Assembly: GCA_035714785.1 (NCBI GenBank)
Contig: DASTLQ010000008.1
Coordinates: 1,713-65,712 of the forward strand
Reading direction: 5' to 3'
DNA: 64,000 nucleotides
Source of the DNA: Minisyncoccota bacterium
GTDB taxonomy: Bacteria; Patescibacteriota; Minisyncoccia; Phycocordibacterales; UBA9973
Below are positions 4,929 through 59,467 of this stretch, one piece after another. The notes under the pieces were generated by a model. It ran no database searches and was not told the origin of the DNA. It was given only the letters and a program-made list of their open reading frames with translations. Position 1 is the stretch's first letter; the number at the start of each line of letters is the position of its first letter. The position numbers and the translations under genes are program-made.

Positions 4929-6386
4929 TTATTTTAAATCTTTTTCTAAGGGAAATAGTGAATAATCCTGGCCCGTAGGGGCGGTGAAAAGCATCCCGAA
5001 AGGTAGCCCTTCTTTAGAAAGACCAGACGGAATAGAGATAGACGGCAGGCCAGCGAGGTTTGCAGAAACTGTAAAAATATCGGAAAGGTACATTTCGACT
5101 GGATCTTTTTTCGCTCCAAATTTGAATGCGGGAGTAGGGGTGGTTGGTGTCATTACAAAATCTACTTCTTTAAAAATGCCATCGTATTCTTTCATGATAG
5201 CACGACGAACTTTCCATGCCTGATTATAGTAAGCGTCGTAATATCCGTGCGAGAGTACATATGTACCGAGCATCACTCTTCTGCGAGTTTCTTGGCCAAA
5301 GCCTAGGGCACGAGTTTTTTTATATGAGTCAGACACACTTTCCCCTTCTTCGCGAAGACCGTATCGAACTCCGTCCAACCGAGAAAGATTTGTAGAAACT
5401 TCTGCTGGCATGATTATATAGTACACGGCCAGAGAATACTTTGAATATGGGAGCGAAATATCTTTTATTTCATATCCTGCCTTTTTGAGCTTTTCTACGG
5501 AGTGCTCGAAATTTTGAAGCACTTCCGGATCTATTCCTTCTTTCAAGAAATCCCTTGGTATACCTATCCTTTTTAGGTGTAAGGGTAAGGGGTCCCCTTG
5601 CATGTTTGCGTGTAAGGGGTCCCCTTGCATGTTAAAGGGTCCGCCTTCGCTCTGCGAAGGTGGACCCTTAGATGTGCCATCCATTTCATCACGTCCCGCG
5701 ATGCATTCAAATACTATCCTTGCATCCTCAGAGGTTTTTGCCATCGGGCCGATTACGTCGAGCGATGAAGACATGGCAGTAAGACCGCTTCGGGAAACGG
5801 CTCCATAGGTAGGCTTCATTCCCACTACTCCGCAAAAACTAGCAGGCTGACGAATAGAACCACCCGTATCAGATCCAAGTGATGCGAGTGCCATTCCTCC
5901 TGCCACCGCAGCAGCCGAACCGCCCGAAGAACCGCCCGGTACTCTGGAGGGATCTAGCGGATTTCTCACTGGGCCATATGCAGAATTTTCGGTAGAAGAT
6001 CCCATGGCAAATTCGTCCATGTTTGTTCTACCGATTAGCACTGCTCCAGCTTCTTTCAATTTCTTTATCACGAAAGCATCATAGCTTGCTCGATAATTTT
6101 CAAGCATTTTTGAACCAGAGCTGTTTATTTTTCCATTCACTAAAATATTATCTTTCACTGCGATTGGAATTCCAGTGAGCGGTCCTCCTTCTCCCCTTTT
6201 TATTTTCTCATCCGCCTTTTTTGCTTCCTCTAGTGCACCTGCAAAAACTTCTAGAAAAATATTTAGCTCCTTGTTTTTTTCTTCTATGCGTGCGAGGCAT
6301 GCAGAAACTAAATCCACCGAGGTTATTTCTCCGGCTTGCATCATCTCTCCCGCTTTTTTAATTGTCAGTGAGTCTATGTCGATCAT
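4929..6386 (-). CDS. gatA: Glu-tRNA(Gln)/Asp-tRNA(Asn) amidotransferase subunit A, carrying an in-frame REP-derived insertion
   Basis: The amidase signature is present (GPLTGIPIAVKDNI, GGSSGGSAAAVA). A repeat at 5576-5670 is translated in frame as GPFNMQGDPLHANMQGDPLPLHL. Confidence 0.9.
   Translation of the reverse strand: MIDIDSLTIKKAGEMMQAGEITSVDLVSACLARIEEKNKELNIFLEVFAGALEEAKKADEKIKRGEGGPLTGIPIAVKDNILVNGKINSSGSKMLENYRASYDAFVIKKLKEAGAVLIGRTNMDEFAMGSSTENSAYGPVRNPLDPSRVPGGSSGGSAAAVAGGMALASLGSDTGGSIRQPASFCGVVGMKPTYGAVSRSGLTAMSSSLDVIGPMAKTSEDARIVFECIAGRDEMDGTSKGPPSQSEGGPFNMQGDPLHANMQGDPLPLHLKRIGIPRDFLKEGIDPEVLQNFEHSVEKLKKAGYEIKDISLPYSKYSLAVYYIIMPAEVSTNLSRLDGVRYGLREEGESVSDSYKKTRALGFGQETRRRVMLGTYVLSHGYYDAYYNQAWKVRRAIMKEYDGIFKEVDFVMTPTTPTPAFKFGAKKDPVEMYLSDIFTVSANLAGLPSISIPSGLSKEGLPFGMLFTAPTGQDYSLFPLEKDLK
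5576..5670. repeat. REP-like palindromic repeat cluster R1 (2 core units plus module-B palindrome) inside the gatA CDS
   Basis: GGTAAGGGGTCCCCTTGCATGTTTGCGTGTAAGGGGTCCCCTTGCATGTTAAAGGGTCCGCCTTCGCTCTGCGAAGGTGGACCCTT. Confidence 0.85.
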
Positions 6387-6664
6387 TAGAGTATCTTTTT
6401 AACTTTCACAAATCCATCTTGGGAATCTGGAAACTGATTTAAAATTTCTTCACGCGAAAACTGGCGGGGACGGGCCTCGTCTTCTCGCCACACATTCTTT
6501 TGCACTGGCTCAGTATCAGCATCAGTTTCATCGATTTTGGCCTCTCGGATTTGCTCAATATAGCCCAAAATCCCCTCTAGGTCTGCGGAAAGGGCGTCCT
6601 TTTCACTGTCTTCTAAATTAAGCTTGGCTAGCTCTGCCAGCTTCTCAATATCCTTTATTTCCAT
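6386..6664 (-). CDS. gatC: Glu-tRNA(Gln) amidotransferase subunit C
   Basis: The 92-aa ORF overlaps the gatA start by 1 nt (ATGA). The motif ..LAKLNLEDSE..ILGYIEQI.. is typical of GatC. Confidence 0.85.
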   Translation of the reverse strand: MEIKDIEKLAELAKLNLEDSEKDALSADLEGILGYIEQIREAKIDETDADTEPVQKNVWREDEARPRQFSREEILNQFPDSQDGFVKVKKIL

Positions 6665-6680
6665 GCTGAAATTATAGCAC

Positions 6681-6855
6681 GTGTAAGGGGTCCCCTTGCA
6701 TGTTATCCACAGGTAAGGGTGGTGGGTGTGGATAAAGTGTAAGGGGTCCCCTTACATGTTGGTGGGAAAGGGTCCACCTTCGCTAAGGGTCCGCCTTCGC
6801 CTCTGGCGAAGGTGGACCCTTAAAGGTGGACCCTTAAAGGGGTTCCTTTACACTT
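6681..6855. repeat. REP-like repeat cluster R2 (2 core units, 2 DnaA-box 9-mers, 2.5 copies of module B)
   Basis: GTGTAAGGGGTCCCCTTGCATGTTATCCACAGG...GTGTGGATAAAGTGTAAGGGGTCCCCTTACATG...AAGGGTCCGCCTTCGCCTCTGGCGAAGGTGGACCCTT. It lies between the htpX stop and the gatC start. Confidence 0.85.
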
Positions 6856-7735
6856 TGCCGAGAAGGGCGCTGATGCGGGCTTCTACAGGAGGGTGGGTGG
6901 CGAAAAGGCCTGTAATTTTCTTCCGGATGGTAGAGCCTTTTGGATCAGAGATATATAGGTGCGCAATCGCCTGACTTTGTCTTTTCATTGGCTGAGAATA
7001 TTGTGAAATTTTTCGCAGGGCGTTTGCCAATCCTTCTGGATACCTTGTGAGAAGTGCACCAGACGCATCAGCAAGAAATTCTCGTCTTCGAGAAATAGCT
7101 AGGCGAATCAGGGAAGCAAAAATTGGGGAAAGAATCACCAGCACTATTCCCACGATCATGAAAACATTTGCTCCACGATTTTCATTGCTTCTACCTGCAC
7201 CAAAAATATGACTGCGTATAAAAACATCTGCAATGATAGTCACAAATCCTACCAGCACTACTGCCACTGTTGAAATCAGCATGTCTCTGTTTCCAATGTG
7301 AGAAAGTTCATGACCAATCACGCCTTCCATTTCATTCTTTTCAAGTATCGCCAAAAGGCCAGTAGTGACCGCAACCACGGCATGATTTTTGTCTCTACCA
7401 GTAGCAAAGGCATTAGGAGCAGGATCATTTATCACATAGAGCTTTGGCATGGGAAGACCTGCCGTAATCGAAAGATTTTCGACAGTGGTGTACAGATCAA
7501 AGTATTCCTCCTTTCTGGCTTCTTTTGCCCCAGAGAGAGACAGCACCACTTTATCTGAAAACCAATAAGAAAATATATTCATCAAGATGCTGAATATTAG
7601 GAAGTAATACAGAATATTAGGATTGCCGTAATAGAAGGAAAAAAACCAGCCGAGTGCTATCACCACTGCCAGGAAGACCGTCATTAGTATCCAAGTCTTA
7701 GTAACATTTTTTGATTGTTCTGTGTATAGTGTCAT
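6848..7735 (-). CDS. htpX: Zinc metalloprotease HtpX (M48 family)
   Basis: HELSHIGNRD is the HExxH motif. There are four TM segments in an M48 architecture. Confidence 0.8.
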   Translation of the reverse strand: MTLYTEQSKNVTKTWILMTVFLAVVIALGWFFSFYYGNPNILYYFLIFSILMNIFSYWFSDKVVLSLSGAKEARKEEYFDLYTTVENLSITAGLPMPKLYVINDPAPNAFATGRDKNHAVVAVTTGLLAILEKNEMEGVIGHELSHIGNRDMLISTVAVVLVGFVTIIADVFIRSHIFGAGRSNENRGANVFMIVGIVLVILSPIFASLIRLAISRRREFLADASGALLTRYPEGLANALRKISQYSQPMKRQSQAIAHLYISDPKGSTIRKKITGLFATHPPVEARISALLGKV

Positions 7736-7763
7736 AGATATTTTATAGCATAAGTATTAAAGT

Positions 7764-9470
7764 CTACCAACTACCTCCCCCGCCCCCGCCGAAACCTCCA
7801 CCAGCAAATCCTCCACCGCCAGTCCCAGATCCACCGGAAGCAGCCGACATGCTACTGCCTATGGTCTCGGAAAATCCAGACATATGATTGGAAAAGGCTG
7901 AGACTGCCAAAGCTCCAGTCAGATGCCCCTGATACCATGACGGAGGAGATATATAAATGTTATCAAACTGCTTGGCCCATTTCTTTTCTACGCCCATGGC
8001 TATTGCATATGGCAGGAATTCCATAAACTGCTCCCCTGTCTTTTCTGGCGCATTATGAAAGGCTAATCTGTCCTTTTCAGTAACTGATAAAAAGAGCTTA
8101 AAGCCGAGAAGTCGGTCCTTTGCTTCTGCCCCAGCTTCTGTTCTTTTGCCCATCAAAAAGGCGAAGACAAGAACAATCAGGAATGAAAGGAAAGCAGAAA
8201 TTGCCCCTATCGGACCTGCAATGCTAGTGAAAAGAAGGAGCCCAGCAAAAAGCGTAACCACCGCGATGATTAGATAAATACCAACTACTTTTTTGGGATT
8301 CTTGTGATAGTATCCACGATCAGCCATTTCTTGGTACATGTCTTTCAAAAATTTTGAAGCATGACTCGAAAATGAAGTATTGTTTTTAAATGAAGAAATT
8401 TTCTTTATATCTCCTGCCTTATGTGGCTCATCAAAAATTAATTTCAAAATATCCTGTTCGATTTTTTCAAGCCCCGAAAAATTGTCGTTCACTAGCTCAA
8501 GCTCGTAGTCCACACTGCCAAACATCCAAGACTTTTCCAATCTTTTTATTTTTAAATATCCTTGTTCGGCCAAATAAATTATACCAGCCGTGATATCTCG
8601 GGTTTCTGGTCGGCCGTCGATCAGTGCACCTACTAATGTAGGTTTCATTTCTCTAGGAGGTTCGTATTCGGCAATGATTGGTTGATATCCCTTTGGATCT
8701 TGGCCATGTTTTTTCCAAATCAATAGCATAGCTAAGAAAATAAATATAGGAAAAGCTAGGATCAGATTGTCGAGCAGAATGGCAAAAGATTTTTCCGTTT
8801 CGCTCGGCTCTCGTACGGTACCTTTTGGAAATGACACAGCAGTGGTAAGTCCTTCACCGGGATATAAAACGGTAGTGGAATTTACAAAAATTACATTGTC
8901 TTTTAGGCTTGCTTGGCAAGTTTCATTTGCTCCATCTTTCCCGTGAAAACAACTTACTTTAATTTCTTTATCTTCGTCAGTTTGGGGAAGTTCGATTCTA
9001 GTGTTCACTTGGGCAATTGATGCGGGCCAGCCAGCGCCAGTCACATTCCAGTAAAATTCATCATAATCTTCAAAGTAACTTATTGCTCCTTTTACTAGAT
9101 AGGTGATTTCATAAAGGTGTTCACCACTGATGGTTTTGTCTTTATCCCCTATCTTTATTTCTACATTTGAGCCTTTATTTGTAACTTCATATGGCTCCAG
9201 AGCTCCGTCGCGAGTGACATTTTGTACCTCTAGTTTTATTGTTTTTTGTCCGAGCTTCGTCTTATATTTCACAGGCACATATCTAAAGATACCGTGCTTT
9301 TCTGCATCAAGGCTGTAAGTTATTTTTTCAACAACCAGAATACTCGCATATTCATTTACTTTTATATCTACAAAAAAACTTTTTATTTCCTCAACAGCAA
9401 AAGACGTTCTTCCTCCTATAGCAAGGAAGGTTAGGAAAACAAAAAGCCCTATGAAAATTTTCTTTTTCAC
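7764..9470 (-). CDS. DUF2207 domain membrane protein with C-terminal poly-Gly tail
   Basis: Signal peptide, large extracellular domain, TM helices, and a GGSGTGGGGFAGGGFGGGGGGSW tail typical of DUF2207. The partner LemA gene is adjacent. Confidence 0.7.
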   Translation of the reverse strand: MKKKIFIGLFVFLTFLAIGGRTSFAVEEIKSFFVDIKVNEYASILVVEKITYSLDAEKHGIFRYVPVKYKTKLGQKTIKLEVQNVTRDGALEPYEVTNKGSNVEIKIGDKDKTISGEHLYEITYLVKGAISYFEDYDEFYWNVTGAGWPASIAQVNTRIELPQTDEDKEIKVSCFHGKDGANETCQASLKDNVIFVNSTTVLYPGEGLTTAVSFPKGTVREPSETEKSFAILLDNLILAFPIFIFLAMLLIWKKHGQDPKGYQPIIAEYEPPREMKPTLVGALIDGRPETRDITAGIIYLAEQGYLKIKRLEKSWMFGSVDYELELVNDNFSGLEKIEQDILKLIFDEPHKAGDIKKISSFKNNTSFSSHASKFLKDMYQEMADRGYYHKNPKKVVGIYLIIAVVTLFAGLLLFTSIAGPIGAISAFLSFLIVLVFAFLMGKRTEAGAEAKDRLLGFKLFLSVTEKDRLAFHNAPEKTGEQFMEFLPYAIAMGVEKKWAKQFDNIYISPPSWYQGHLTGALAVSAFSNHMSGFSETIGSSMSAASGGSGTGGGGFAGGGFGGGGGGSW

Positions 9471-9475
9471 TTCTT

Positions 9476-10096
9476 TTAGAATTTTACTTCTACTGGGTTT
9501 TGAGCAGCGTCGCCGTCTGGTAGATCAAAGAATTGCTTCTTTCCAAATCCAAATACTCCAGCAATCACATTCCCTGGGAAGCTTTCTAGGCTAGTGTTTA
9601 GGTCGCGAACATTTCCGTTGTAAAATCTTCGAGAAGCCTGAATTTTGTTTTCAGTATCGGATAGTTCACGCTGAAGTTCCAAGAAGTTTGTATTCGCTTT
9701 TAGGTCAGGATACGCTTCTGCAAGAGCGAAGATGGATTTTAAAGCTCCGGTAAGCATGTTTTCAGCTTCGGCATGTTGCGCGGTTGGACCTTGTGCACCC
9801 ATCGCCACAGATCGAGCCTTTGTGACATTTTCAAAAGCGCTAGCTTCGTGAGTAGCGTAACCTTTTACAGTATTTACTAGATTTGGGATAAGATCATATC
9901 TTCTCTTTAGCTGTACTTCTATGTCTGCCCATGCTTCTTCGGTTCTGTTGCGAAGAGATATGAAATGGTTGTACATAGTAACCACCCATATCACCAAGAG
10001 GACTCCGATAGCAATCAGGTTAAATTCCCACGGAATTAGATCAAATAATCCGCTGGCTAGTAGTAAAATAATGATAATACCAAAGATAATATTCAT
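9476..10096 (-). CDS. lemA: LemA family protein
   Basis: N-terminal TM helix followed by RRYDLIPNLVNTVKGYATHE, which fits the LemA family. Confidence 0.8.
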   Translation of the reverse strand: MNIIFGIIIILLLASGLFDLIPWEFNLIAIGVLLVIWVVTMYNHFISLRNRTEEAWADIEVQLKRRYDLIPNLVNTVKGYATHEASAFENVTKARSVAMGAQGPTAQHAEAENMLTGALKSIFALAEAYPDLKANTNFLELQRELSDTENKIQASRRFYNGNVRDLNTSLESFPGNVIAGVFGFGKKQFFDLPDGDAAQNPVEVKF

Positions 10097-10143
10097 ATAA
10101 ATAATAAGGAATTAGGGGTAATACTTCTATTATAGCATGCTTA

Positions 10144-10224
10144 GGTGTAAGGGGTCCCCTTACACTTTATCCACACCCACCACCCTTACCTGTGGATAAC
10201 ATGTAAGGGGTCCCCTTGCATGTT
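10144..10224. repeat. REP-like repeat cluster R3 (2 inverted core units, 2 DnaA-box 9-mers)
   Basis: GGTGTAAGGGGTCCCCTTACACTTTATCCACACC...CCTGTGGATAACATGTAAGGGGTCCCCTTGCATG. It lies between the lemA start and the secF stop. Confidence 0.85.
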
Positions 10225-11128
10225 AGGCTTTACGTTTGTGCTCTTCCCACATCACGAGGACTGGGGAGGCGAAGAATATCGATGAATATACGCCGAAGAT
10301 CATACCTGTAGTAAGCATGAATGCAAAGTATTTTGTAGCAGGTGGTCCAAAGAAAAATAGGGACAGCAATACCAATATAGTAGTGAGCGAAGTGAGTATG
10401 GATCGAGCATAAGACTGATCCAAGCTCTTGCCTACAATTTCTTCAAATTTTGAATGATGTTTTATATTGTCTTCGTTTCGAAGATTTTCTCGAATACGAT
10501 CAAAGACCACAATAGTGTCAGCAATAGAAAGACCGACGATGGTAAGCGCAGCTACCACGAATAATGAATCCGCCTCTACTCCAGTAAATTTAGAAAGTAA
10601 TGAAAATACTCCAGCTGCAATGATCACGTCGTGCAAAAGTGCAGCGATAGCGATCAGTCCGTATTTCCATGAAGAAACTGGATTAGAAACTTTTCTGAAA
10701 GCAAATGCGATAAAGCATACCACCGCGAAAGAAGAAAGGATGATGGCGGTAATGGCTTTTCTTGAAAGCTCTCTTCCTGTTGATGGACCGATGGAATTAA
10801 AGCTAGTCTCTACAAGCTCATACTCATCGCCTGCAGACATGACCGAAAGCAATGCTTGGTGTTCATCATCTGTGAGATCGCGAGTCTTTACGATATATCC
10901 TGATTCCCCTGTAGGCTGAAGCACCACGGAACCAAGACCAAGTAGCGCAAGCTCACTGTTTAAATCAACTTGTAGAGGTCTCTCCCCTACATAGGTTACT
11001 TCGGTAAGTGCACCTCCTTTAAAGTCTATCCCCATTTTTATTCCAAATACGGAAATAGAGATGATAGACAAAATCACTAGTATGATAGAGATAGCGACAA
11101 ATATTTTTTTGTGTTTAATTACAAACAT
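10223..11128 (-). CDS. secF: Protein translocase subunit SecF
   Basis: The 301-aa ORF has six TM helices and the conserved FKGG.. N-terminal region. It lies downstream of secD. Confidence 0.85.
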   Translation of the reverse strand: MFVIKHKKIFVAISIILVILSIISISVFGIKMGIDFKGGALTEVTYVGERPLQVDLNSELALLGLGSVVLQPTGESGYIVKTRDLTDDEHQALLSVMSAGDEYELVETSFNSIGPSTGRELSRKAITAIILSSFAVVCFIAFAFRKVSNPVSSWKYGLIAIAALLHDVIIAAGVFSLLSKFTGVEADSLFVVAALTIVGLSIADTIVVFDRIRENLRNEDNIKHHSKFEEIVGKSLDQSYARSILTSLTTILVLLSLFFFGPPATKYFAFMLTTGMIFGVYSSIFFASPVLVMWEEHKRKA

Positions 11129-11130
11129 AA

Positions 11131-12495
11131 TTATTTTTTAAATATTCTTGCATCGAATAAAAATCTAGCAACCTTTCCTTCTCCAATGAATGTCACCCCG
11201 TATAGGAACAATCTTGAAATCACTACGGCAGCAAACATAGAGACCAGCACACCCATTCCAAGCGTCAGAGCAAATCCTTTGATGAGGGAACTTCCAAACC
11301 AGAAAAGGATCACTGATGTAATCAGGGTAGAAATATTTGAATCACGAATAGAAAGCCATGCTCGGGCAAAACCACCATTGATGGAATCAAGAATGCTCTT
11401 TTCTTCTGCAAGCTCTTCTTTCATGCGCTCAAATATAAGGATATTGGCGTCGACGGCTATACCGAGGGAAATAATAAATCCAGCGATGCCAGCTGCCGTC
11501 AAGGTGACTGGAATCAATTTATATAAAGCTAAAATAACTGCCACATATACCGCCAAAGAAATGACGGCTAGTAATCCTGGCAGGCGGTACCAAAGAATCA
11601 AAAAGATTGCGATTGCAAGAAATCCAATTATAGCTGCTTTCACTCCAGCCTCTACTGCATTTTCTCCAAGGATTGCTCCGATGGTCTGCCTAGAAACCAA
11701 AGTAATCGGCACAGGCAAAGCTCCGGAATTTAATCTTCCGACAAGCGTCTTCGCTTCTTCAGGAGTAAACTGTCCAGAAATTTGTGCTACTCCATCTAAG
11801 ATTGGTTCGTTTACTGTTGGTACTGAAATTGGTGCACCATCTAGATAGATTGCGACTGGCTTTCCGACATTTGCTTTTGTAATTTCTGCGAAGAGTTCTT
11901 TTCCTCTTTCATCAAATTCAATTCCAACCAAAGGCTGTCGTGTTGTAGGATCAAATTGTAAATTTGCTCTCTTTAAAAATCTTCCAGTAAGCTCCGTAGA
12001 AACAAATTGAGAATTTGGGTCTATTGTTAGCTCTCCTTCTTCGGTGATAGTGTAGTTTAGTTCTGTTCCCTCTGGGGCTTCAATTTTAAATTCCAAAATA
12101 GGAGTCTCACCGATCATGGCCGCTGCTTGGTCTACGTCAGTCACTCCGGGTAAGTCTACAATAAGTTTTTCTCCACCTCCTTCTACAAATCCGCCTCGCT
12201 GTATTTGAACGAGTGGCTCAGATACTCCAAAAAGATTTACTCGGCGCTCAATCACGTCTCTTAAGGCGTCCATTGATTCGCCAATTTCTCCGGGAGCTAC
12301 TTCTGAAACGTCCGCTTCATAAACAAGATGACTTCCGCCCGAAAGGTCTAGTCCTAAGCGCAAAGGAAAATTGTGAAAGAAAGAAGTCTCATTTTCATAG
12401 TTCGTGTTTGCCCGTGGTTCTGATTTAAATACAAAAAATGCCACTGCGATTCCGAGCAGTAATATGATGAGCGCTCCTAGTCTTTTTTTCCACAT
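11131..12495 (-). CDS. secD: Protein translocase subunit SecD
   Basis: Large periplasmic domain followed by six C-terminal TM helices. The start is trimmed to MWKKRLGALII, because the ORF's N-terminal extension runs into the REP repeat. Confidence 0.85.
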   Translation of the reverse strand: MWKKRLGALIILLLGIAVAFFVFKSEPRANTNYENETSFFHNFPLRLGLDLSGGSHLVYEADVSEVAPGEIGESMDALRDVIERRVNLFGVSEPLVQIQRGGFVEGGGEKLIVDLPGVTDVDQAAAMIGETPILEFKIEAPEGTELNYTITEEGELTIDPNSQFVSTELTGRFLKRANLQFDPTTRQPLVGIEFDERGKELFAEITKANVGKPVAIYLDGAPISVPTVNEPILDGVAQISGQFTPEEAKTLVGRLNSGALPVPITLVSRQTIGAILGENAVEAGVKAAIIGFLAIAIFLILWYRLPGLLAVISLAVYVAVILALYKLIPVTLTAAGIAGFIISLGIAVDANILIFERMKEELAEEKSILDSINGGFARAWLSIRDSNISTLITSVILFWFGSSLIKGFALTLGMGVLVSMFAAVVISRLFLYGVTFIGEGKVARFLFDARIFKK

Positions 12496-12544
12496 ACAGG
12501 TTGATATTACGACATTTTTTAAACGTTCGCAAGTTTTGGGCCAA

Positions 12545-12682
12545 CATGCAAGGGGTCCCCTCCAAGGGTCCACCTTCGCCAGAGGCGAAGGTGGACCCTT
12601 TAACATGCAAGGGGACCCCTTACACTTTATCCACACCCACCCCCCTTACCTGTGGATAACATGCAAGGGGTCCCCTTACACC
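12545..12682. repeat. REP-like repeat cluster R4 (3 core units, module B, 2 DnaA-box 9-mers) in the divergent secD/SIMPL intergenic region
   Basis: CATGCAAGGGGTCCCCTCCAAGGGTCCACCTTCGCCAGAGGCGAAGGTGGACCCTTTAACATGCAAGGGGACCCCTTACACTTTATCCACACC..CCTGTGGATAACATGCAAGGGGTCCCCTTACACC. Confidence 0.85.
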
Positions 12683-12702
12683 TAAAGTGCTATAATATAA
12701 GG

Positions 12703-13428
12703 ATGGAAAATAATACTACACGTACATATACGCTTTTTGCCCTCATTTTGGGACTGTCTTTGGTTTTAAGTGCGATTATTGGCTCAATGACTTTTTATAA
12801 ACTCCGCTCGATGGATTATATTTCTTCTACTGGCTCCGCTAAGAAAGCAGTGGTCTCCGACAAGGTGAAATGGTCTTCAAACATCAGCCGACCAGTTCGA
12901 ACTTCTACTATCAAAAGCGGATACGCAAACATGGAAGCAGATTTAAAGGCGGTGCGCAATTTTCTTACCACTAACGGAATTCCGGCAGAGTCAATCGAAA
13001 TCTCCCCTGTCTTTATGCACGAAGTATATGAACAAAATCCTGGAATAGAAAAAGCCTATACTCTCACTCAGAGTATCGAAGTAAGCTCTACCGATGTTGC
13101 AAAAATTGCAGAGCTTGCAAAAAACACTAGCTCTCTAGCAAACTCGGGCATGATCTTTTCTACAAACTCATTAGAATACTTTTACTCCCAACTTCCTGAA
13201 GCTCGTGTAGAACTCTTGGCTGCAGCAGTGGAAGATGCAAAAAATCGTGCAGGCCAAATAGCTAAGGCAGGAGGAAAGAAAATTGGTACTCTAAAATCTG
13301 CATCATCTGGCGTAGTGCAAGTAATGTCTGAAAACTCTATCGAAGTTTCAGACTACGGTATGTACGATACTTCTAAAATAAACAAAGAAATAATGGTGAC
13401 AGTAAAGGCTAGCTTCGAGATTCGCTAG
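12703..13428 (+). CDS. SIMPL (DUF541) domain protein
   Basis: N-terminal TM helix and a SIMPL-like periplasmic domain. The start is trimmed to MENNTTRTY, because the ORF's 5' extension reads through the repeat. Confidence 0.65.
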   Translation: MENNTTRTYTLFALILGLSLVLSAIIGSMTFYKLRSMDYISSTGSAKKAVVSDKVKWSSNISRPVRTSTIKSGYANMEADLKAVRNFLTTNGIPAESIEISPVFMHEVYEQNPGIEKAYTLTQSIEVSSTDVAKIAELAKNTSSLANSGMIFSTNSLEYFYSQLPEARVELLAAAVEDAKNRAGQIAKAGGKKIGTLKSASSGVVQVMSENSIEVSDYGMYDTSKINKEIMVTVKASFEIR

Positions 13429-13966
13429 ATTCTATAGACTGAAAAGATCTTTTTACTAAGTAGGCTATTATTGCTCCTACCACTAATCCCCCCAAAATAT
13501 CAACTGGAGAATGCACTCCGGCTGATATTCGTGCGAGTCCAATCACTAAAGCAATAATAATAAACACTGTTCCAGCTTTTTTACTTGTCATGTAAATCGC
13601 AACAGCCAGCGCCATAAAGAAAGTGGTGTGCGAAGAAGGAAAACCGTAGCCAGACTCTTCAATAATAGGAGTAATGTCGGTGATGAAATCAAGTGGACGC
13701 GGAGTAGATAATATAATTTTTAAAACATTTGCCACTACCCAAGCGGACACTAGCGAAACTACTATCGGTGCGAATTTTTTCCAATTATTGAAAAAGTTTT
13801 TGAAAGGATTCCCTCTAGGTAACACGTCGTAATGATATGCTAAAAATATCCCCGCCCCCAAGAGGGCGATATACGGTAAGGTATCAGCTAAAAAATAAAT
13901 CAGCTCATCTATCGTCTGTGACTGTCCTGTTAGATTATGAAAATATAAAAATATTTGTTCGTTCAT
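13409..13966 (-). CDS. PAP2 family phosphatase (undecaprenyl-diphosphatase-like)
   Basis: PAP2 motifs are present (PSSHTTFF and SAGVHSPVDILGG), with multiple TM helices. Confidence 0.75.
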   Translation of the reverse strand: MNEQIFLYFHNLTGQSQTIDELIYFLADTLPYIALLGAGIFLAYHYDVLPRGNPFKNFFNNWKKFAPIVVSLVSAWVVANVLKIILSTPRPLDFITDITPIIEESGYGFPSSHTTFFMALAVAIYMTSKKAGTVFIIIALVIGLARISAGVHSPVDILGGLVVGAIIAYLVKRSFQSIESSESRS

Positions 13967-17062: not shown

Positions 17063-17422
17063 ACAATAATGAAATTGCGATATATATACTGTCGCTCCCG
17101 CCGTGGCGGACGCGTTATGATTTTCAAATTTCTTAACAGGAATCGAACAATTAGTACTTCTCAGCTCTACACATTACTGTGCTTACACTTAAAGCCTATC
17201 AACCTGATCATCTCTCAGGGTTCTTAACGATTCCTAATCTTGAAGCTGGCTTCCCTCTTAGATGCTTTCAGAGGTTATCCATTCCCGACATAGCTACCGA
17301 GCAATCCACTTGGCAGTAGAGCTCGTACACCAGAGGTCAGTTCACGCCGGTCCTCTCGTACTAAGCGCAAATCTTCTCAAGAATCAACGAGTGCAGTAGA
17401 TAGGAGACCAACCTGTCTCACG

Positions 17423-17748
17423 CATCTACGTCCATAATTACTTATGGGATTGGACTATAGCTTCATCTTTCTTCAGTTTTTACTTGAATAAGACTGCTGA
17501 CGTTTAGTCTCTACGGGTTCCGCCTACTGGCAGATTCCCTCGGTATTGCCCTCACTTTCGTGATCGGGTTTCACCGATACTAGTCAGCTTCACGTCACGC
17601 ATTTCTGTGTGACGCCGCCGTGATGTGCTAAAGCAAATGAATGCCATGCACGTGGTTGTTTTCGATTTATAACAGTCTAATTCGTTCTGAATTATTTTCC
17701 TCTGTAGGGTTCAGATCGTCAAAACCACAAGTTTGTCTTATGATCTCA
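17423..17748 (-). other. Group I intron (ORF-less) in 23S rRNA at the E. coli position ~2593 equivalent
   Basis: Exon junction GGGTTCAGACCGT|intron|CGTGAGACAGG. The intron follows U and ends in G. R-like (GTAGAGACTAAACG) and S-like (GAAGCTATAGTCC) elements are present. Confidence 0.65.
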
Positions 17749-18411
17749 ACGGTCTGAACCCAGCTCGCGTACCTTTTTAATTGGCGAACAGCCAAACGCT
17801 TGGGAGCTTCTCCACCCCCGCGCTAAGGTGAGCCGACATCGAGGTGCCGAACTCCGCCGTCGATATGAACTCTTAGGCGGAACTAGCCTGTTATCCCTAG
17901 AGTAGCTTTTATCCGTTAATCTAAACCCGCATCTAATGCGAAATTTCGGTTCACTTAGTTCTGGTTTCCCACCTGCTCGGGAAGTACCCCTTACAGTCAA
18001 GCCATCTTATGCCTATACACTATCGGCACGGTTTCCATTCGCGCCTAGATGACCTTTAAACCCCTCCTTTACTTTTTAGGAGGGTACAGCCCCAGTAAAA
18101 CTATCCACCAGATACTGTCTCAGTCCGTTTTTTCCGTACTGGTTAGAACATGCCTTCAAAAAGAATGGTATTTCACTGACGAGTAGATAACAGCCGAAAC
18201 CGCTAACATCAGACCTCTCCCATCTATTCTACGCAGTTTAAAAACATGCTCAATATCAAGTTATAGTAAAGCTTCTAGGGTCTTTTCGTCTAACTGCACT
18301 TAACCGGCATCTTCACCGGTATTGTATTTTCACCGAGCTGGTCCCCGAGACAGTTTCCCAGTCATTACACCATTCGTGCGCGTCGGAACTTACCCGACAA
18401 GGTATTTCGCT

Positions 18412-18625
18412 CTTCTATACCCAAGAAGGACTCTATCTTCATCCTCTCCGAAGAGGTGGGATGCTTGACGCTGGTCTCTCGTTAGCCAAGTTTTGACTGT
18501 CTCTACATTACTCTAGAGCAGGTAGCATTCGAATAGTCTAATAATTTTTTAATTTAATTGTTTACTTTTTTCTACAACAGTCCCAGTCATTCCGCGCTCG
18601 TCTGCCATAGGCAAACAAATGCAGA
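18412..18625 (-). other. Group I intron (ORF-less) in 23S rRNA at the E. coli position ~1917 equivalent
   Basis: Exon junction GGTCCTAAGGT|intron|AGCGAAATACCTTGTCGGGTAAG. The intron follows U and ends in G. R-like (TGTAGAGACAGTC) and S-like (GAAGATAGAGTCC) elements are present. Confidence 0.6.
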
Positions 18626-18660
<35 letters not shown>

Positions 18661-19394
18661 CAGGGCTTATATCAGTCTGCATATCTCCATCTTGCGACAA
18701 AGAAACACCGCCGATATTTGACCTTCTGGCATTGGTCAGGTGTCACCCCCTATACATCCTCTTACCGAGTTCGCAGGGAGCTGTGTTTTTGGTAAACAGT
18801 TGCCAGGAATACTTTCGCTGCGGCCGGCATTTCTGCCGGCAAGCCTTATCCCGAAGTTACGGCTGCTTTTTTGCCGAGTTCCTTGGGGACCTCTCACTCG
18901 TTCGTCTTGGTCTACTCGACCTGATCACCTGTGTCGGTTTGCGGTACGGATTCCATATTTTTAAGTTTAGAGATTTTTCTTGGAAGCGTGCTTTGCGAAA
19001 TTGCCCTCGGCCTAAACCGAAAACTTTTCACTTCTCTTGGATTCGCTATTTAAAGCAGCGCGCGGATTTTCCTACGCATCATCCTCAAGAAGCAAACTTA
19101 AATCCATTAATAAGCGACGCATACTACACTCCGTCCTCTCATCACAAAATATGGAAGTGCAGAAATATTAATCTGCTCTTCCATCGGGTGCGGATTTCTC
19201 CATCCCCTTAGGCCCGACTAACCCTTGGCTGATTATCATTACCAAGGAAACCTTGATCTTTCGACGTGATGCGTTCTCAGCATCATTGCGGTTACTTGTG
19301 CCAACATTCTTACTTCCACACGCTCCATAGGCCCTCACGGGTCCTACTTCACAGCAGAGTGGAACACTCTCCTACCACTCGTGAACTTCATAGA

Positions 19395-19705
19395 GGAGCC
19401 GATATTTTTTTATATCGGCTTTCAAACAATTTCGGGGTTCTCCGCAACATCAATCCACACGTTCAGAACACCATATTTAACGTATTGGAGAACCCAAAAG
19501 AACAAATCGTGCCCAGGAAGCGGGATTAAAACCCGACAAAGACCTTCGTCTTTGTATGCTTTGTTTTAACAAAAATTTTTTAAATTAGTTTTTATTTAAA
19601 CATCGCCTGATTGTTACTACTACCGGCTCAATATATCATACACGATATACCAGTACGTAACCCTCCTGGGCTGGCCACCCACCTTGGATGCGAAACTCTT
19701 CCTCT
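19395..19705 (-). other. About 310-nt insertion in 23S rRNA at the helix-45-equivalent region (IVS-like, bounded by a ~16-bp long-range stem)
   Basis: It lies between conserved CCGAA.. and GGTAGGAGAGTGTTC. The flanks GAATTTCATAGAGGA / TCCTCTATGAAGTTC can pair with each other. No group I signatures were seen. Confidence 0.4.
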
Positions 19706-20409
19706 ATGAAATTCACGAATCCTCACATTCGGTACTATGCTTAGCCCCAATTATTTTCGACGCAAAATCTCTGGATGAGTGAGCTGTTACGCTATCTTTA
19801 AAGGATGGCTGCTTCTAAGCCAACCTCCTCATTGTCAGAGAAATTTCACCTTCTTGTCTTGCACTTAGCATAGATTTAGGGACCTTATATTGAGATCCGG
19901 GCTGTTTCCCTTTTCACCAATGGAGCTTAGCCCCCACGGTGTAACTGCCGCATTCTGGCTTCTGGTATTCGGAGTTTGATAGGTTTCGCGAGATTGCTCC
20001 CTGTCGAAACCTTCCAGTGCTCTACCCCCAAAAGAAACATGCGACGCTAGCCCTAAAGCTATTTCGGAGAGAACCAGCTATTACCAGGTTCGATTAGCTT
20101 TTCACTCCTTACCACAAGTCATCCCAACGCGTTGTACGACGAACGGGTTCGGACCTCCATAAGTCTTTCGACCTACTTCATCCTGCTCATGGCAAGCTCA
20201 CCTGGCTTCGGGTCTTATGCATGATATATTTATTTCGCGCTATTAACACTCGGTTTCCCTACGGCTCTGCGGTTCTCCCGCTTAACCTACAACATGCATA
20301 AACTCGTTGGCTCATTCTTCAATAGGCACGCTGTCGCAGATATAAATACCTGCTCCAACTCCTTGTAGACATACGGTTTCAGGTCTATTTCACTGCCCTA
20401 ATCGGGCTT

Positions 20410-20446
<37 letters not shown>

Positions 20447-21202
20447 ATCTGTTAGAGTATTTAGCCTTAGCGGTTAGTTCCGCTGGATTCCCCCCGGCCA
20501 TTCGTGTCCTGGGGTACTCAAGAACGGCAATAAAAGAGATAAATTATTTTCGCTTACGGGCCTATCACCCTCTATGGAACCGCTTTCCAGCAGTTTCAGC
20601 TAATAATTTATTTTTTTACTCTTCTAGTAATCTACATTGCCGCCTTACAACCCCCAAATATTGCTACTTGGGTTTGGGCTCTTTCCTTTTCGCTCGCCGC
20701 TACTTAGGAAATAATTTTTATTCTCTTTTCCACCTGGTACTGAGATGTTTCACTTCCCAGGGTGCGCTCTCTGAATCAAGTTCAGAGTTATTGAGGTTTG
20801 CTCAATAGGGTTTCCCCATTCGGAGATCTCCGGATATATTGGTTGCTAGGCACCTCCCCGGAGCTTATCGCAGCTATGCCACGTCCTTCATCGCCTCTAA
20901 CAGTCTAGGCATCCACCGTACGCCCTTAATTTCCTGTTAAGAAATCTGAAAATCATAATTTTCATTTAGCTTTCTTTTCCGACCGCTCGGCATAAGAAAG
21001 CTGTTCTACCTACCGACATAAAGACCCCTTGGAAAGATTCATATCTTTACAAAAGAAATTGTCGTAGTAGCTTTAAGTTTTCAATCTTCAATCCGTTTCG
21101 GCAAACAAAAAACCGCCTTGTGGGCGGCTAAAAGAAAAAAACTTCTCTTTAGCGCCGCCTTTTGAGTTTCGTGTTTTTCGTTATTGTCATACTGATTGGG
21201 CT

Positions 21203-21231: not shown

Positions 21232-21296
21232 GAAAAAGGCCTAAAACCCCCAGAAACGCCAAAAGCCCAGCATAAACCGGGCTTTTGTAAGGATTT

Positions 21297-21340
21297 GCAA
21301 GGGGTCTAGGTGTAAGGGGTCCCCTTGCATGTTATCCACA
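21297..21340. repeat. REP-like repeat R5 (1 core unit plus DnaA-box 9-mer)
   Basis: GGTGTAAGGGGTCCCCTTGCATGTTATCCACA. Confidence 0.85.
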
Positions 21341-22116: not shown

Positions 22117-22698
22117 TCAAGGTCTTTTGAGTGCTTGTGTGGATAACTCTTTGGCGGACCACACGACCTCGTGAGGGAAATCGAGGATATCTCTGACCAA
22201 TTTGTCGTACATATCCAATCTATATACAAATTCTTTAGTATCAAAAACAACGTAAGAAAGCTCAACTCCGATTTCTGCTTCAAGTCTTTTCACACCTTCT
22301 TCCACTTTCTTGGTCTTGATTTTATCTCCTACCACTAAAATATCAGCCCGAGTGTCTTTGTCTTTTATAAATACACCAGACACAATCAAGAGCTTTATCT
22401 TTCCTGATTTTCGGAAACTTTCGATTATGTTTTGCTTGTCGTAGCTTCCGGCATTTATTAATAAATCCTCAAATTCAGTTGTATAAGGGAAAGCTAGATT
22501 GAAGGTCCAACCTGCAGACATCTTTTTTACAAAATTTGCCGACGAAAGAAGAGCGAGCTCTTTGCGGACCACCGAAAGATTCACCCTACTTCTACTTACT
22601 ATATCTTTATTGGTAAAAGCTTTGCTTTTGTTTTGCAAAAAAAGCCTCATCATTTTTACCCTAGACGGGCTTCCTAGTATTTTTCCTAATATTTCCAT
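22117..22698 (-). CDS. Hypothetical winged-HTH-like protein
   Basis: The N-terminal segment ILGSPSRVKMMRLFLQNKSKAFTNKDIVSRSRVNLSVVRKELALL has HTH character. The start is trimmed to MEILGKILG, because the 5' extension reads through repeat R6. Confidence 0.45.
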   Translation of the reverse strand: MEILGKILGSPSRVKMMRLFLQNKSKAFTNKDIVSRSRVNLSVVRKELALLSSANFVKKMSAGWTFNLAFPYTTEFEDLLINAGSYDKQNIIESFRKSGKIKLLIVSGVFIKDKDTRADILVVGDKIKTKKVEEGVKRLEAEIGVELSYVVFDTKEFVYRLDMYDKLVRDILDFPHEVVWSAKELSTQALKRP

Positions 22699-30313: not shown

Positions 30314-30317
30314 TTGA

Positions 30318-44800: not shown

Positions 44801-44861
44801 GGTGTAAGGGGTCCCCTTGCATGTTATCCACAGGTTTAGGTGTAAGGGGTCCCCTTACACC
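44801..44861. repeat. REP-like repeat cluster R11 (2 core units plus DnaA-box 9-mer) upstream of tuf
   Basis: GGTGTAAGGGGTCCCCTTGCATGTTATCCACAGGTTTAGGTGTAAGGGGTCCCCTTACACC. Confidence 0.85.
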
Positions 44862-44888
44862 TAAGTTTGCGTGCATTTTAAATCTAAC

Positions 44889-45770: not shown

Positions 45771-45820
45771 CCTGTGGATAACATGTAAGGGGTCCCCTTG
45801 CATGTTCCCCTTGCATGTTA
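45771..45820. repeat. REP-like repeat R12 (1.5 core units plus DnaA-box 9-mer) abutting the fusA stop
   Basis: CCTGTGGATAACATGTAAGGGGTCCCCTTGCATGTTCCCCTTGCATGTTA. Confidence 0.8.
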
Positions 45821-49848: not shown

Positions 49849-49852
49849 CCCG

Positions 49853-49909
49853 CAACATGTAAGGGGTCCCCTTGCATGTTATCCACAGGGTAAGGGGACC
49901 CCTTACACC
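49853..49909. repeat. REP-like repeat cluster R13 (2 core units plus DnaA-box 9-mer)
   Basis: CAACATGTAAGGGGTCCCCTTGCATGTTATCCACAGGGTAAGGGGACCCCTTACACC. Confidence 0.85.
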
Positions 49910-49916
49910 TTGCATA

Positions 49917-51267: not shown

Positions 51268-51342
51268 CCTGTGGATAAAGTGTAAGGGGTCCCCTTGCAT
51301 GTTATCCACATGTGGATAAAGTGTAAGGGGTCCCCTTACACC
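51268..51342. repeat. REP-like repeat cluster R14 (2 core units, 3 DnaA-box 9-mers)
   Basis: CCTGTGGATAAAGTGTAAGGGGTCCCCTTGCATGTTATCCACATGTGGATAAAGTGTAAGGGGTCCCCTTACACC. Confidence 0.85.
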
Positions 51343-51343
51343 T

Positions 51344-58006: not shown

Positions 58007-58051
58007 GTATTAAATATACTCCCAAATAAAATAAAAACCAACCAGCAAAAC

Positions 58052-58105
58052 AGGGTAAGGGGACCCCTTACCCTGTGGATAACATGCAAGGGGACCCCTT
58101 ACACC
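58052..58105. repeat. REP-like repeat cluster R15 (2 core units plus DnaA-box 9-mer) abutting the rplK stop
   Basis: CAGGGTAAGGGGACCCCTTACCCTGTGGATAACATGCAAGGGGACCCCTTACACC. Confidence 0.85.
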
Positions 58106-58530
58106 TAGTCTTTTACGTCGATTCCCATAGAGCGGGCAGAGCCTGCTACGATGCGGATAGCGCCTTCGATATCTTTTGCGTTTAGATCTGGCATTTTCTT
58201 TTCTGCGATTGCCTGTGCCTGTGCTTTAGTGATTTTTCCAGCCTTGCTGACAGTGTTTTTACCTGATCCCTTTTCGATTCCAGCAGCTTTCAAAATAAGT
58301 CCTGATACTGGAGGAGTCTTAACGACAAAATCGTAGCTTCGGTCTTCGTATACGGAAACATTTACAGATACTGTGTCGCCCATCATCTTAGAAGTGGCAG
58401 CGTTAAACTTGGTGACAAAGTCTCCGATATTGATTCCTGCCTGTCCAAGTGCTGGTCCAAGAGGAGGAGCTGGAGTAGCCTTTCCTGCTGGAATCTGAAG
58501 CTTTATTTTTTTTGTTACTTTTTTAGCCAT
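58105..58530 (-). CDS. rplK: 50S ribosomal protein L11
   Basis: [34 protein letters not shown]. Confidence 0.9.
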
Positions 58531-58581
58531 ATTTTTATATTTCTTTACTTAAAGCGCCCATGTCTCAACTGACAGATTACC

Positions 58582-59127
58582 CTATGTTCTCTTAACTTGC
58601 AAGAAGTCTAATTCTACTGGGGTTTCTCGGCCGAACATTGATACTAATACTTTTACCTTGCCTCTTTCTTGATCTACTGCATCCACTTTTCCTTCTAAAT
58701 CTCTAAATGGACCGTCAGTGATGCGTACCATTTCTCCGATTGCAAGATCAATATTGTGCTTTGCTGGTTCTCCATCCATTTTCTTAAACAGAAAATCAAC
58801 TTCGTCTTTTCGAAGGGGCACAGGATTTATTCCAGCTCCTACGAACCCAGTGACGCGTGGAGTGTTGCGCACTACGTACCATGAATCATCCGTCACTATC
58901 ATATCCACCAATACGTATCCGGGATATATTTTTTCTTCGACTTCTACCCTCTTTCCTCCTTTTACTTTTATTTTCTTTTCTACCGGTACTACTACATTAA
59001 AAATTTTCTCGTGCATCATCAGAGAGTCTATGCGCTGCTTCAAATTGCGCAGAACGACATTTTCGTATCCTGCGTAAGTATGAATGGCGTACCAATTTCT
59101 TGTACCTTGGTTTTCTTGCTTTGACAT
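58582..59127 (-). CDS. nusG: Transcription termination/antitermination factor NusG
   Basis: An NGN domain (NWYAIHTYAGYENVV) and a KOW domain (GEMVRITDGPFRDLEGKV) are present. The start is trimmed to MSKQENQ. Confidence 0.85.
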   Translation of the reverse strand: MSKQENQGTRNWYAIHTYAGYENVVLRNLKQRIDSLMMHEKIFNVVVPVEKKIKVKGGKRVEVEEKIYPGYVLVDMIVTDDSWYVVRNTPRVTGFVGAGINPVPLRKDEVDFLFKKMDGEPAKHNIDLAIGEMVRITDGPFRDLEGKVDAVDQERGKVKVLVSMFGRETPVELDFLQVKRT

Positions 59128-59140
59128 ATTATTTTTATTG

Positions 59141-59319
59141 TTAGAACAATAGCTCCAATGCTCGGAGGAAGATGAAGTCAAAGAGTCCGAGGAAATAAGC
59201 CACGAGGATGGAAAGAACAATAACGATAACAGTGTAATGCACTGTTTGCATCTTGCCTGGCCATACTACATGCCTCAATTCTCCTTTTATTTCTTTGAAA
59301 TATTCGGTTACTTTTGCCA
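59141..59319 (-). CDS. secE: Protein translocase subunit SecE (59 aa, below the ORF-track cutoff)
   Basis: The manual translation is MAKVTEYFKEIKGELRHVVWPGKMQTVHYTVIVIVLSILVAYFLGLFDFIFLRALELLF. It has a single TM helix and lies upstream of nusG. Confidence 0.55.
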
Positions 59320-59387
59320 TATTCTTTTAAAAAAGCCCCTCGTGGGGCTCTTTTAATATACTCCTTTCACAAAAAATGTCAATTTTA

Positions 59388-59467
59388 GGTGTAAGGGGTC
59401 CCCTTACACTTTATCCACACCCTGTGGATAACATGCAAGGGGACCCCTTGCCCCTTGCGCCTTGCGC
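59388..59467. repeat. REP-like repeat cluster R16 (2 core units, 2 DnaA-box 9-mers, CCCCTTGCGCCTTGCGC tail)
   Basis: GGTGTAAGGGGTCCCCTTACACTTTATCCACACCCTGTGGATAACATGCAAGGGGACCCCTTGCCCCTTGCGCC. Confidence 0.85.

Follow-up and report, generated by a model that had tools for sequence, protein, structure and literature searches.

The stretch of DNA analyzed here, referred to below as the window, comprises 64,000 nucleotides of contig DASTLQ010000008.1 (positions 1,713 to 65,712) of GenBank assembly GCA_035714785.1, a metagenome-assembled genome (MAG) of a Minisyncoccota bacterium of the Candidate Phyla Radiation (CPR). It carries a 23S rRNA gene with a group I intron, a 5S rRNA gene, ribosomal-protein operons, secY, tuf, fusA, secDF, and gatCA, with almost all genes on the minus strand. 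Scattered among these genes are 16 loci of short palindromic repeats, together with one gene, at 29469-30161 (-), for a Y1 transposase of the HUH type. A sequence-only reading had interpreted the repeats as repetitive extragenic palindromic (REP) sequences, or bacterial interspersed mosaic elements (BIMEs), accompanied by a cognate REP-associated tyrosine transposase (RAYT). We followed up this interpretation by analyzing the repeats, the transposase, and their counterparts in related genomes.

Results

All repeat counts given here cover the 64-kb window of this one MAG. The core sequence AAGGGGNCCCCTT was present in 28 exact copies versus 0.00 expected from shuffles, and the 28 perfect AAGGGGWCCCCTT cores, spanning positions 5587-59449, grouped into 16 loci, the same number as in the sequence-only reading. 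The repeat unit is a palindrome of 21 to 23 bp, N5-AAGGGG-W-CCCCTT-N5, with a conserved flank motif, the box, on one or both sides. The arm forms GTGT, CATGY, and GGGT recurred and combined freely into hybrids, as had been described earlier, and a profile search added five degenerate or partial cores, at 6837, 12545, 21296, 33037, and 45806. Read on the plus strand, 21 cores have T at the central position and 7 have A; this mild asymmetry between strands may stem from strand specificity in single-strand transposition. The box (TTATCCACA or, inverted, TGTGGATAA) was found in 24 perfect copies versus 0.64 expected, at a density of about one per 2.8 kb. All but one of these (23/24) adjoined a core, with the spacing fixed at 5 nt from AAGGGG/CCCCTT and the orientation invariably outward; boxes were either perfect or truncated, and none was point mutated. 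The full unit is a 41-bp super-palindrome, TGTGGATAA-N5-AAGGGG-W-CCCCTT-N5-TTATCCACA, which is complete at 30238-30278 and 51270-51310. In 8 of 13 cases, the outer terminus read (T/C)TAG directly followed by GTGT; the flank that was conserved is TTATCCACA(G). Another palindrome, module 2 (AAGGGTCCRCCTTCGC), was represented by seven half-sites confined to 5635-5669, 6768-6821, and 12564-12600, exactly the three loci named before. Repeat-derived DNA made up ~1.2 kb (1.9%) of the window.

Copies were arranged as a mosaic of singlets, tandem doublets, inverted doublets, and truncated forms, many with a box on one side or none; the inverted and tandem pairs with a flank motif that the sequence-only reading had noted were thus recovered. 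Writing P for the palindrome and box' for the inverted box, we found inverted doublets of the form P-box-linker-box'-P at six loci (6681, 10139, 12605, 30237, 51269, and 59383), with linkers of 15 nt (CCCACCNCCCTTACC), 3 nt, or 0 nt. When folded as single-stranded DNA, each doublet formed one long hairpin (folding energy [dG], -19 to -44 kcal/mol; z score, -5 to -11), and 0 of 200 shuffles folded equally well. This is the design of REPINs, i.e., REP doublets forming hairpins.

The transposase gene encodes 230 aa, including a helical C-terminal extension of ~75 aa, and is the only copy in the window. The protein matched the Pfam family Y1_Tnp (31.3 bits; gathering threshold [GA], 23), and its HUH motif NHFHILV and tyrosine motif AYIHLNPV were invariant in 71 homologues. 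In an AlphaFold2 (AF2) model built on the homologue alignment (pLDDT, 85.9), the top fold match in the PDB was 4ER8 (chain A), Escherichia coli TnpA_REP with a REP hairpin (E value = 1.3e-6), ahead of the TnpA proteins of ISDra2 and IS608. Repeat clusters lie on both sides of the gene, in agreement with the earlier claim of a cognate RAYT. The 5' flank (30237-30314) holds a box'-P-box-CC(C)-box'-P doublet (dG, -24.5 kcal/mol; z score, -6.2) with a complete 41-bp super-palindrome, TGTGGATAA-N5-AAGGGGTCCCCTT-N5-TTATCCACA. The 3' flank (29394-29455) holds a tandem doublet in which P is followed, on the minus strand, by a box adjoining the TTGACA-N18-TATAAT of the next gene (TTATCCACAG-TTTTGACA-N18-TATAAT). 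The open reading frame (ORF) at 32416-32985, beside another repeat and on the opposite strand, was considered as a RAYT and rejected; it is cmk (cytidylate kinase).

The arrangement TGTGGATAA...TTATCCACA could also be read as the terminal inverted repeats (TIRs) of a family of MITEs (miniature inverted-repeat transposable elements) that originated from a classical (DDE) insertion sequence, and the box-hairpin-box units do resemble short TIR-bounded elements. We consider such an origin very improbable. Direct repeats flanking the copies were not longer than in 2,000 random controls, and this lack of target-site duplications fits Y1 transposition and argues against a DDE-type MITE. In addition, many copies are one-boxed or boxless, no DDE transposase was present among the window ORFs scanned against Pfam, and the sole transposase is the Y1 HUH enzyme, which is itself flanked by the repeats.

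Next, we looked at the transposase in relatives. Homologues are abundant in Parcubacteria (>6,800 at an E value of ≤1e-5), the closest being ~65% identical. The system had been called unusual for the CPR, which holds only in that our literature search found no paper on REPs, REPINs, or RAYTs in CPR, Parcubacteria, or Patescibacteria; as a family, the transposase is very common in these bacteria. Eight relatives with DNA, whose proteins are 57 to 66% identical, were examined for synteny. The order big protein, Y1_Tnp, ..., rplJ, rplL, ~200-aa protein, MscS-like protein was kept in six of them (L001, L002, L003, L007, L009, and the P0127 contig); the L008 contig was too short for synteny, and in L010 the gene lies in a type IV pilus context. 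L004, retrieved via gatA, has a Y1_Tnp gene about 4 kb downstream. Judging from this shared neighborhood, the transposase gene behaves in the way of RAYTs (PMC5581495), as a single-copy gene passed on vertically.

In all eight relatives L001 to L004 and L007 to L010, the gene is flanked by a hairpin of the relative's own, different in sequence: TTTACTAAGGCCTTAGTAAA in L001, TATCCAAGGGGWCCCCTTGGATA in L002, AGAAAGGACGGTCCTTTCT in L003, ACGGAGGC-NNN-GCCTCCGT in L004, CTGCAGGAGGTCCGACCTCCTGCAG in L007, GAAGGTCCGACCTTC in L008, AGGAAGGCAATTCCTTCCT in L009, and ACCGAGGTTAAACCTCGGT in L010. A hairpin plus box orthologous to the window's 3' flank (29394-29455) was present in L001, L003, L007, and L009. 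Two relatives also carried hairpin sequence inside the gene. In L003, the DNA coding for the conserved RAYT motif HF(Q/R)xGR(S/T)F (10154-10186) has the same sequence as the REP of that genome, AAAGGACGGTCCTTT; in L002, IIQGVPLD, an in-frame reading of the L002 REP, takes the place of this stretch (10156-10178). It thus seems that the RAYT gene carries, at a fixed position, an internal copy of the hairpin of its lineage; at the corresponding position of the window's RAYT there is only a weak palindrome. L003 additionally has a second dispersed palindrome family, AAGGTC(T/C)GACCTT, with at least 12 copies in tandem pairs at 1819-6341, several of them within called genes (ftsK, 1868-4171; ORFs 4192-4431 and 4532-5446). 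This palindrome resembles module 2 of the window (AAGGGTCCACCTTCGCC) and the L008 hairpin.

We then mapped the repeats relative to genes. Fourteen of the 16 loci were intergenic and two lay inside genes. At seven loci, a repeat terminus contains the upstream gene's stop codon or lies directly beside it (secF, fusA, rplK, secY, htpX, DEAD, and map), and the opposite end of the repeat often adjoins the -10 or -35 hexamer of the next gene, as at gatC ([repeat]GTGCTATAAT...ATG). Orthologous spacers measured 22 to 24 nt in relatives versus 126 to 183 nt in the window, and the repeats make up the difference. The htpX/gatC spacer, for example, is 183 nt long in the window versus 22 nt in L006; its repeat (6681-6821) comprises a REPIN-type doublet, P-box-GGTAAGGGTGGTGGG-box'-P, and three module-2 half-sites, and the htpX stop codon lies within the degenerate core at 6837-6853. 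In the secF/LemA spacer (10139-10225; 24 nt in the orthologous spacer of L004), a REPIN-type doublet with a 15-nt linker (dG, -23.2; z score, -6.0) has the secF stop TAA inside one terminus, and the TGCTATAAT of LemA adjoins the other end. The repeat in the secD/SIMPL spacer (12545-12686; dG, -43.7; z score, -11) combines a REPIN-type doublet with a degenerate core and a module-2 palindrome that is perfect (17+17).

The remaining intergenic loci follow the same pattern. A single P with a box and a partial core lies at 21296-21340, separating the MscS-like gene from the 23S rRNA promoter region, and at 22720-22751 a single P with a box stands between the stop of purH and the next gene's TATAAT. 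The convergent cmk/secY spacer (32981-33055) has P-box-linker, a truncated box, and a degenerate core, with the secY stop in the terminus CACCTAG. Upstream of tuf (44802-44865), a P-box-GGTTTAG-P doublet (dG, -19.2; z score, -5.7) adjoins the TTGACA of a promoter-like site. Downstream of fusA (45772-45820), box'-P and a partial core are accompanied by the fusA stop TAA within GCATGTTA. Downstream of rpmB (L28, plus strand), there is a P-box-GG-P doublet (49852-49910); downstream of the DEAD-box helicase gene (51269-51343), the boxes abut in box'-P-box-box'-P, which includes a complete super-palindrome (dG, -22.8; z score, -6.4). Downstream of rplK (58050-58107), the arrangement is P-box'-P with the rplK stop TAG in the terminus ACACCTAG. 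Finally, the repeat at 59383-59467, between a SIMPL-family gene and the secE/nusG region, reads P-box-CC(C)-box'-P with degenerate CCCCTTGC tails and adjoins TTGACA-N16-TATATT. The copies had been placed at gene and operon boundaries by the sequence-only reading. This was correct for htpX/gatC, LemA/secF, secD/SIMPL, cmk/secY, upstream of tuf, and downstream of fusA, L28, L11, and NusG, and incorrect for 5576-5670 and 23220-23282, which lie in frame within gatA and purH.

With 14 of 16 loci intergenic, directly after stops and directly before -10/-35 hexamers, and with hairpins this stable, the palindromes might instead be immobile cis-regulatory elements selected at operon boundaries, as terminators or attenuators, stabilizers of mRNA 3' ends, or operators of dimeric regulators. 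PMC3733652 and PMC3479197 do describe effects of REPs on mRNA stability and termination elsewhere. We nevertheless regard this as quite improbable. The orthologous spacers of 22 to 24 nt in relatives lack such an element, the copies form a mosaic of singlets, tandem and inverted doublets, and truncated forms, and two copies are in frame within gatA and purH. Across the region scanned (5000-13500, with four repeat loci), no intrinsic terminator or -35/-10 promoter formed by the repeats was called, and 0 of the 4 loci had a following T-run or terminator-like call. A purely regulatory role would also leave out the link to a flanked Y1 transposase that is conserved across lineages. The palindromes may have acquired a secondary regulatory function.

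The two intragenic copies are translated loop insertions rather than spurious ORFs, as judged from the protein alignments. In gatA (4929-6386), the copy at 5576-5670 (-) is a tandem P doublet plus a module-2 palindrome (dG, -29.7; z score, -9.8) with the in-frame reading ...SKGPPSQSEGGPFNMQGDPLHANMQGDPLPLH... At the insertion site, the GatA loop has ~11 aa in the shortest (basal) relatives and 14 aa more here than in Aquifex GatA (3h0l). In purH (22768-24498), the copy at 23220-23282 (-) consists of two P in tandem with a single box; it shares its reading frame with the gatA copy and gives PVDNMQGDPLHANMQGDPLPL. The variable loop of PurH, 20 aa long in the closest homologue, has 25 aa here, nearly all repeat encoded. 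Tandem doublets lacking the full box-linker-box were open in 3 to 4 of 6 frames, while inverted doublets were closed in nearly all, and this openness matches the type of the two intragenic survivors. The peptides of the MDNMQG..PLH type that the sequence-only reading had dismissed as products of spurious ORFs are therefore, in part, real sequence in GatA and PurH. The dismissal stands for the plus-strand ORFs crossing repeats (6726-6974, 12404-12685, 22955-23296, and 23169-23444; e.g., ...WIKCKGSPCMLKGPPSP...), which most likely arise spuriously from open frames in the palindromes. In-frame copies are unusual, but of a kind already known, intragenic REPs being reported for other phyla in PMC3733652.

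The GatA loop, between MDSTS and IGVPRDF, is hypervariable in Paceibacterota, ranging from 11 to about 40 aa (alignment P0001-P0080). Its peptide motifs SSGPRFSGAPTPARPFR, RVLDTRIGCPTPD, EGRPFQEGPTFS, and PPYQGGDRKSPRLAKEGVGGG recur among relatives, and its DNA is hairpin-like in L004 (10001-11464; 18-bp inverted termini), L005 (4891-6357), and L006 (9769-11199). This pattern suggests that the loop is a site of repeated capture of palindromic elements. A second copy of the L004, L005, or L006 insert was not found within ~20 kb per relative, so that the insert was not demonstrated to be a dispersed REP of the relative's own. Beside gatCA, an RVT_1 reverse transcriptase is encoded in L005 (2706-4073, with a bAvd accessory gene) and in L006 (15802-16842), and this is probably a diversity-generating retroelement in these relatives.

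PurH has a second, low-complexity insertion of ~25 aa (…SMGEAQSAESAQSAQSAQEGTQTA…; window about 22990-23080, residues ~478 to 500) that is unrelated to the repeats and missing from all 25 closest homologues in the alignment. The purH gene lies between rplL and the ~200-aa gene preceding the MscS-like gene, with the repeat at 22720-22751 at its border. Relatives with the same synteny have no purH at that position, so the gene looks like a lineage-specific insertion at this address.

An assembly or binning artefact, i.e., collapsed or chimeric reads, deserves mention because the source is a MAG. The chance of this is next to negligible: the units (30 to 140 bp) are shorter than a read and each sits in a unique context, two copies keep the long reading frames of conserved enzymes, and the same architecture recurs with other hairpins in independent assemblies.

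We also evaluated the box. It was attached to differing hairpins in 6 of 9 loci: the window, L001, L003, L007, L008 (where it is slightly degenerate), and L009. In L007, CTGTGGATAA-hairpin-TTATCCACAG stands directly 5' of the gene and is repeated 5 kb away, and in L009 a perfect 51-bp box-hairpin-box palindrome extends across the 3' end of the gene. REPs of Proteobacteria carry the tags GTAG and CGTC. By analogy with these, the most likely role of the box is that of a recognition tag conserved in this RAYT family, because it stays on hairpins that are wholly different between lineages.

Boxes also occur without a palindrome. The only such box in the window, at 22138-22146 (-), lies upstream of the MscS-like gene and is orthologous to stand-alone boxes at L001 16602, L003 17671, and L007 17861; further stand-alone perfect boxes are at L001 5888, L002 5084, L003 5633, L007 606, L008 1335, L009 5532, and L010 9189. 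These stand-alone boxes share the orientation of the downstream gene, lie upstream of a -10 hexamer at a distance of about 27 to 32 nt, and often follow a GAG. From its sequence context, the stand-alone box appears to be a cis-element that is conserved in these bacteria irrespective of the repeats, and the box may also, or instead, be the site of a host factor such as a DnaA box.

The DnaA-box consensus is quoted as TT[AT]TNCACA in PMC6006769, and TTATCCACA matched this consensus (TTATNCACA), the 9-mer of DnaA-box clusters of the datA, DARS, or DBC type, perfectly in 24 of 24 window copies. If the boxes were genuine DnaA boxes, the family would mainly scatter high-affinity DnaA sites, with the hairpin and the RAYT only as vehicle, and could act through initiator titration, promoter regulation, or the opening of DNA for hairpin formation. 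To this we give a minor but appreciable credence. In its favor, boxes are perfect or truncated without point mutations, hairpin-free perfect boxes are conserved at two orthologous promoters (those of the big-protein and MscS-like genes), and the window's single repeat-free box is one of these. There is also a precedent in kind in the integration host factor (IHF) site of E. coli BIME-1/RIP elements; separately, PMC3479197 mentions REPs as IHF recruiters. Against it, the window contains neither a dnaA gene nor an origin, the consensus may not be the host's own box preference, and the 9-mer match may be a coincidence among many known motifs. Relatives showed no enrichment of boxes outside the RAYT neighborhood (gatA loci; 1 in 59 kb versus 0.45 expected). 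Moreover, the fixed 5- to 6-nt spacing to lineage-specific hairpins and the two-sided symmetry fit a transposase tag at least equally well. The C-terminal domain of the RAYT was considered as a DnaA-like helix-turn-helix (HTH) that would read the box, and was rejected: a relaxed Pfam scan of the C-terminal 79 aa and a PDB profile search were empty, and hhalign against domain IV of E. coli DnaA gave a probability of 1%.

Several other features of the window are recorded here. GC skew was negative in every 2-kb bin but two, with no sign of an origin or terminus. Group I introns were matched twice: one match, at 17431-17640 (-), lies within the 23S rRNA gene (17132-20939; about 3.8 kb, probably with more than one insertion), and the other, at 3881-4088 (+), is in seemingly noncoding DNA between ORFs 3098-3802 and 4278-4928, on the opposite strand to its neighbors and without an obvious host gene. 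At the window edge, a 601-aa protein (14-1819 [-]) has IPT/TIG and ice-binding-like domains.

Discussion

In our view, the palindromes of this window are probably non-autonomous hairpin repeats of the REP/REPIN type, kept and spread in trans by the single domesticated Y1 HUH transposase, a RAYT. The REP/BIME and RAYT interpretation of the sequence-only reading is supported by the hairpin palindromes, the extragenic position of 14 of 16 loci, the folds of the inverted doublets, the flanked Y1 HUH transposase with its TnpA_REP-like fold, and the hairpins in eight relatives.

Several observations weigh against this interpretation. In the NCBIfam scan, REP_Tyr_transpos (NF047646) was the sole family matched by the transposase, at 43.3 bits versus an equivalog cutoff of 80, and sequence and profile searches of the PDB gave no genuine match (the sequence search returned only spurious crystallin matches); by these sequence comparisons, the protein is a distant relative of characterized RAYTs. 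The canonical REP tag is missing, with neither GTAG nor CGTC at the window hairpins. The repeat counts speak to abundance within one window of one MAG. Two of the eight relatives, L002 and L004, have few hairpin copies, all near the RAYT, and the family is therefore not always expanded. The hairpin-free boxes kept at two orthologous promoters across relatives indicate that the box also has an existence apart from the repeats. Lastly, the exact composite had 0 matches in 185,579 species-representative genomes and 241 M metagenome contigs (two patterns, one with the 5-nt arm left free), leaving no filled and empty polymorphic sites within a species to compare. Since it is missing from these genomes and metagenomes, the window's family is lineage specific and probably young.

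By analogy with E. coli TnpA_REP and the IS200/IS605 family, we infer mobilization by the RAYT, a single-strand mechanism, and a role of the box in it. The mobile unit would likely be two units in inverted orientation, separated by a linker of 0 to 15 nt and folding as one long hairpin in single-stranded DNA. The RAYT would recognize the hairpin and the neighboring single-stranded tag on DNA exposed in replication, cleave through its tyrosine, and reinsert the element without a target-site duplication; the TTATCCACA(G) box would serve as the family's recognition tag. In a compact genome, only harmless copies would persist, and these would fall into two classes: copies squeezed in after a stop codon and ahead of the promoter that follows, often providing the stop, and the open-frame tandem variant in the variable surface loops of GatA and PurH.

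The closest known systems are the REP/REPINs and RAYTs of Proteobacteria, such as E. coli TnpA_REP/YafM and the Pseudomonas REPINs. They share with the window short (about 20- to 40-bp) G+C-rich hairpins that are mostly extragenic and near gene 3' ends, with few in genes, inverted doublets that can fold into one longer hairpin, one Y1 HUH gene lying between copies of its own repeats (the top fold match here being 4ER8), and vertical inheritance in conserved synteny with a hairpin sequence that varies by lineage. The window differs in its distantly related protein with a ~75-aa C-terminal extension, in having in place of GTAG/CGTC a tag of 9 to 10 nt, TTATCCACA(G), sometimes on both sides of the hairpin, and in its host, a CPR/Paceibacterota bacterium. 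E. coli BIME-1/RIP elements have an IHF site between two REPs. Like the repeats described here, these elements (RIB) are mosaics of two converging REPs whose linker includes a site for a host DNA-binding protein; there the IHF site is in the linker, whereas here the candidate is a DnaA-box-like 9-mer in the outer part of each hairpin arm. The Rickettsia palindromic elements (RPEs), of 100 to 150 bp, stand in frame in conserved protein genes of a reduced genome, and we know of no cognate transposase for them. The likeness is one of behavior only, palindromic repeats in a reduced genome being tolerated in frame and adding loop peptides; the sequences are unrelated, only 2 of 16 loci are intragenic here, and a candidate cognate transposase is present. 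Other phyla have documented REPtrons, REP doublets, and intragenic REPs (PMC3733652, PMC3337134, and PMC2817692); the arrangement in the window, with the transposase gene between two repeat clusters, is that of the REPtron described for Proteobacteria (PMC3733652). According to Quentin et al. (2018; PMC6006769) and Di Nocera et al. (2013; PMC3733652), TIRYT/subclass 2.1 TnpA_REP-like proteins have a C-terminal Bac_DnaA_C-like HTH, and a DnaA-box link has already been raised for them. These, too, are longer RAYT relatives with an extra C-terminal domain, flanked by inverted repeats; unlike them, in the window it is the repeats that carry the DnaA-box consensus, and the C-terminal domain of the protein lacks similarity to DnaA domain IV.

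A bolder possibility is that the box is a functional DnaA box and that expansion driven by the RAYT places hundreds of perfect DnaA sites in a sub-megabase genome, coupling a selfish element to replication control. We consider this distinctly unlikely. In the literature, we found no link of REPINs or RAYTs to DnaA boxes except a negative remark in PMC6006769. If it were true, DnaA binding could help to melt DNA so that hairpins extrude for the transposase, the repeats could be a distributed DnaA sink or a promoter module, and the stand-alone promoter boxes would be the ancestral sites from which the tag was captured.

Returning to the REP/RAYT interpretation, the window holds a system of a known kind, in a phylum for which no description was found, and with an unusual tag. 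Beyond the sequence-only reading, the present analysis adds the in-frame gatA and purH copies, a RAYT in conserved synteny with lineage-specific hairpins, and a box kept as a tag. The best example of a replicator that persists for long within a genome and is inherited vertically comes from REP/RAYT systems, which have been studied almost only in Proteobacteria; this case places them in ultrasmall CPR genomes, where every base between genes is under pressure. A fixed RAYT address, lineage-wise replacement of the hairpin, and a retained 9- to 10-nt tag together make a natural series for asking which part of a REP the transposase reads. The findings also explain why loops of conserved CPR proteins such as GatA carry hypervariable insertions, which affect annotation and phylogenetic alignment, and they suggest a connection, open to testing, of a mobile repeat with the DnaA box.

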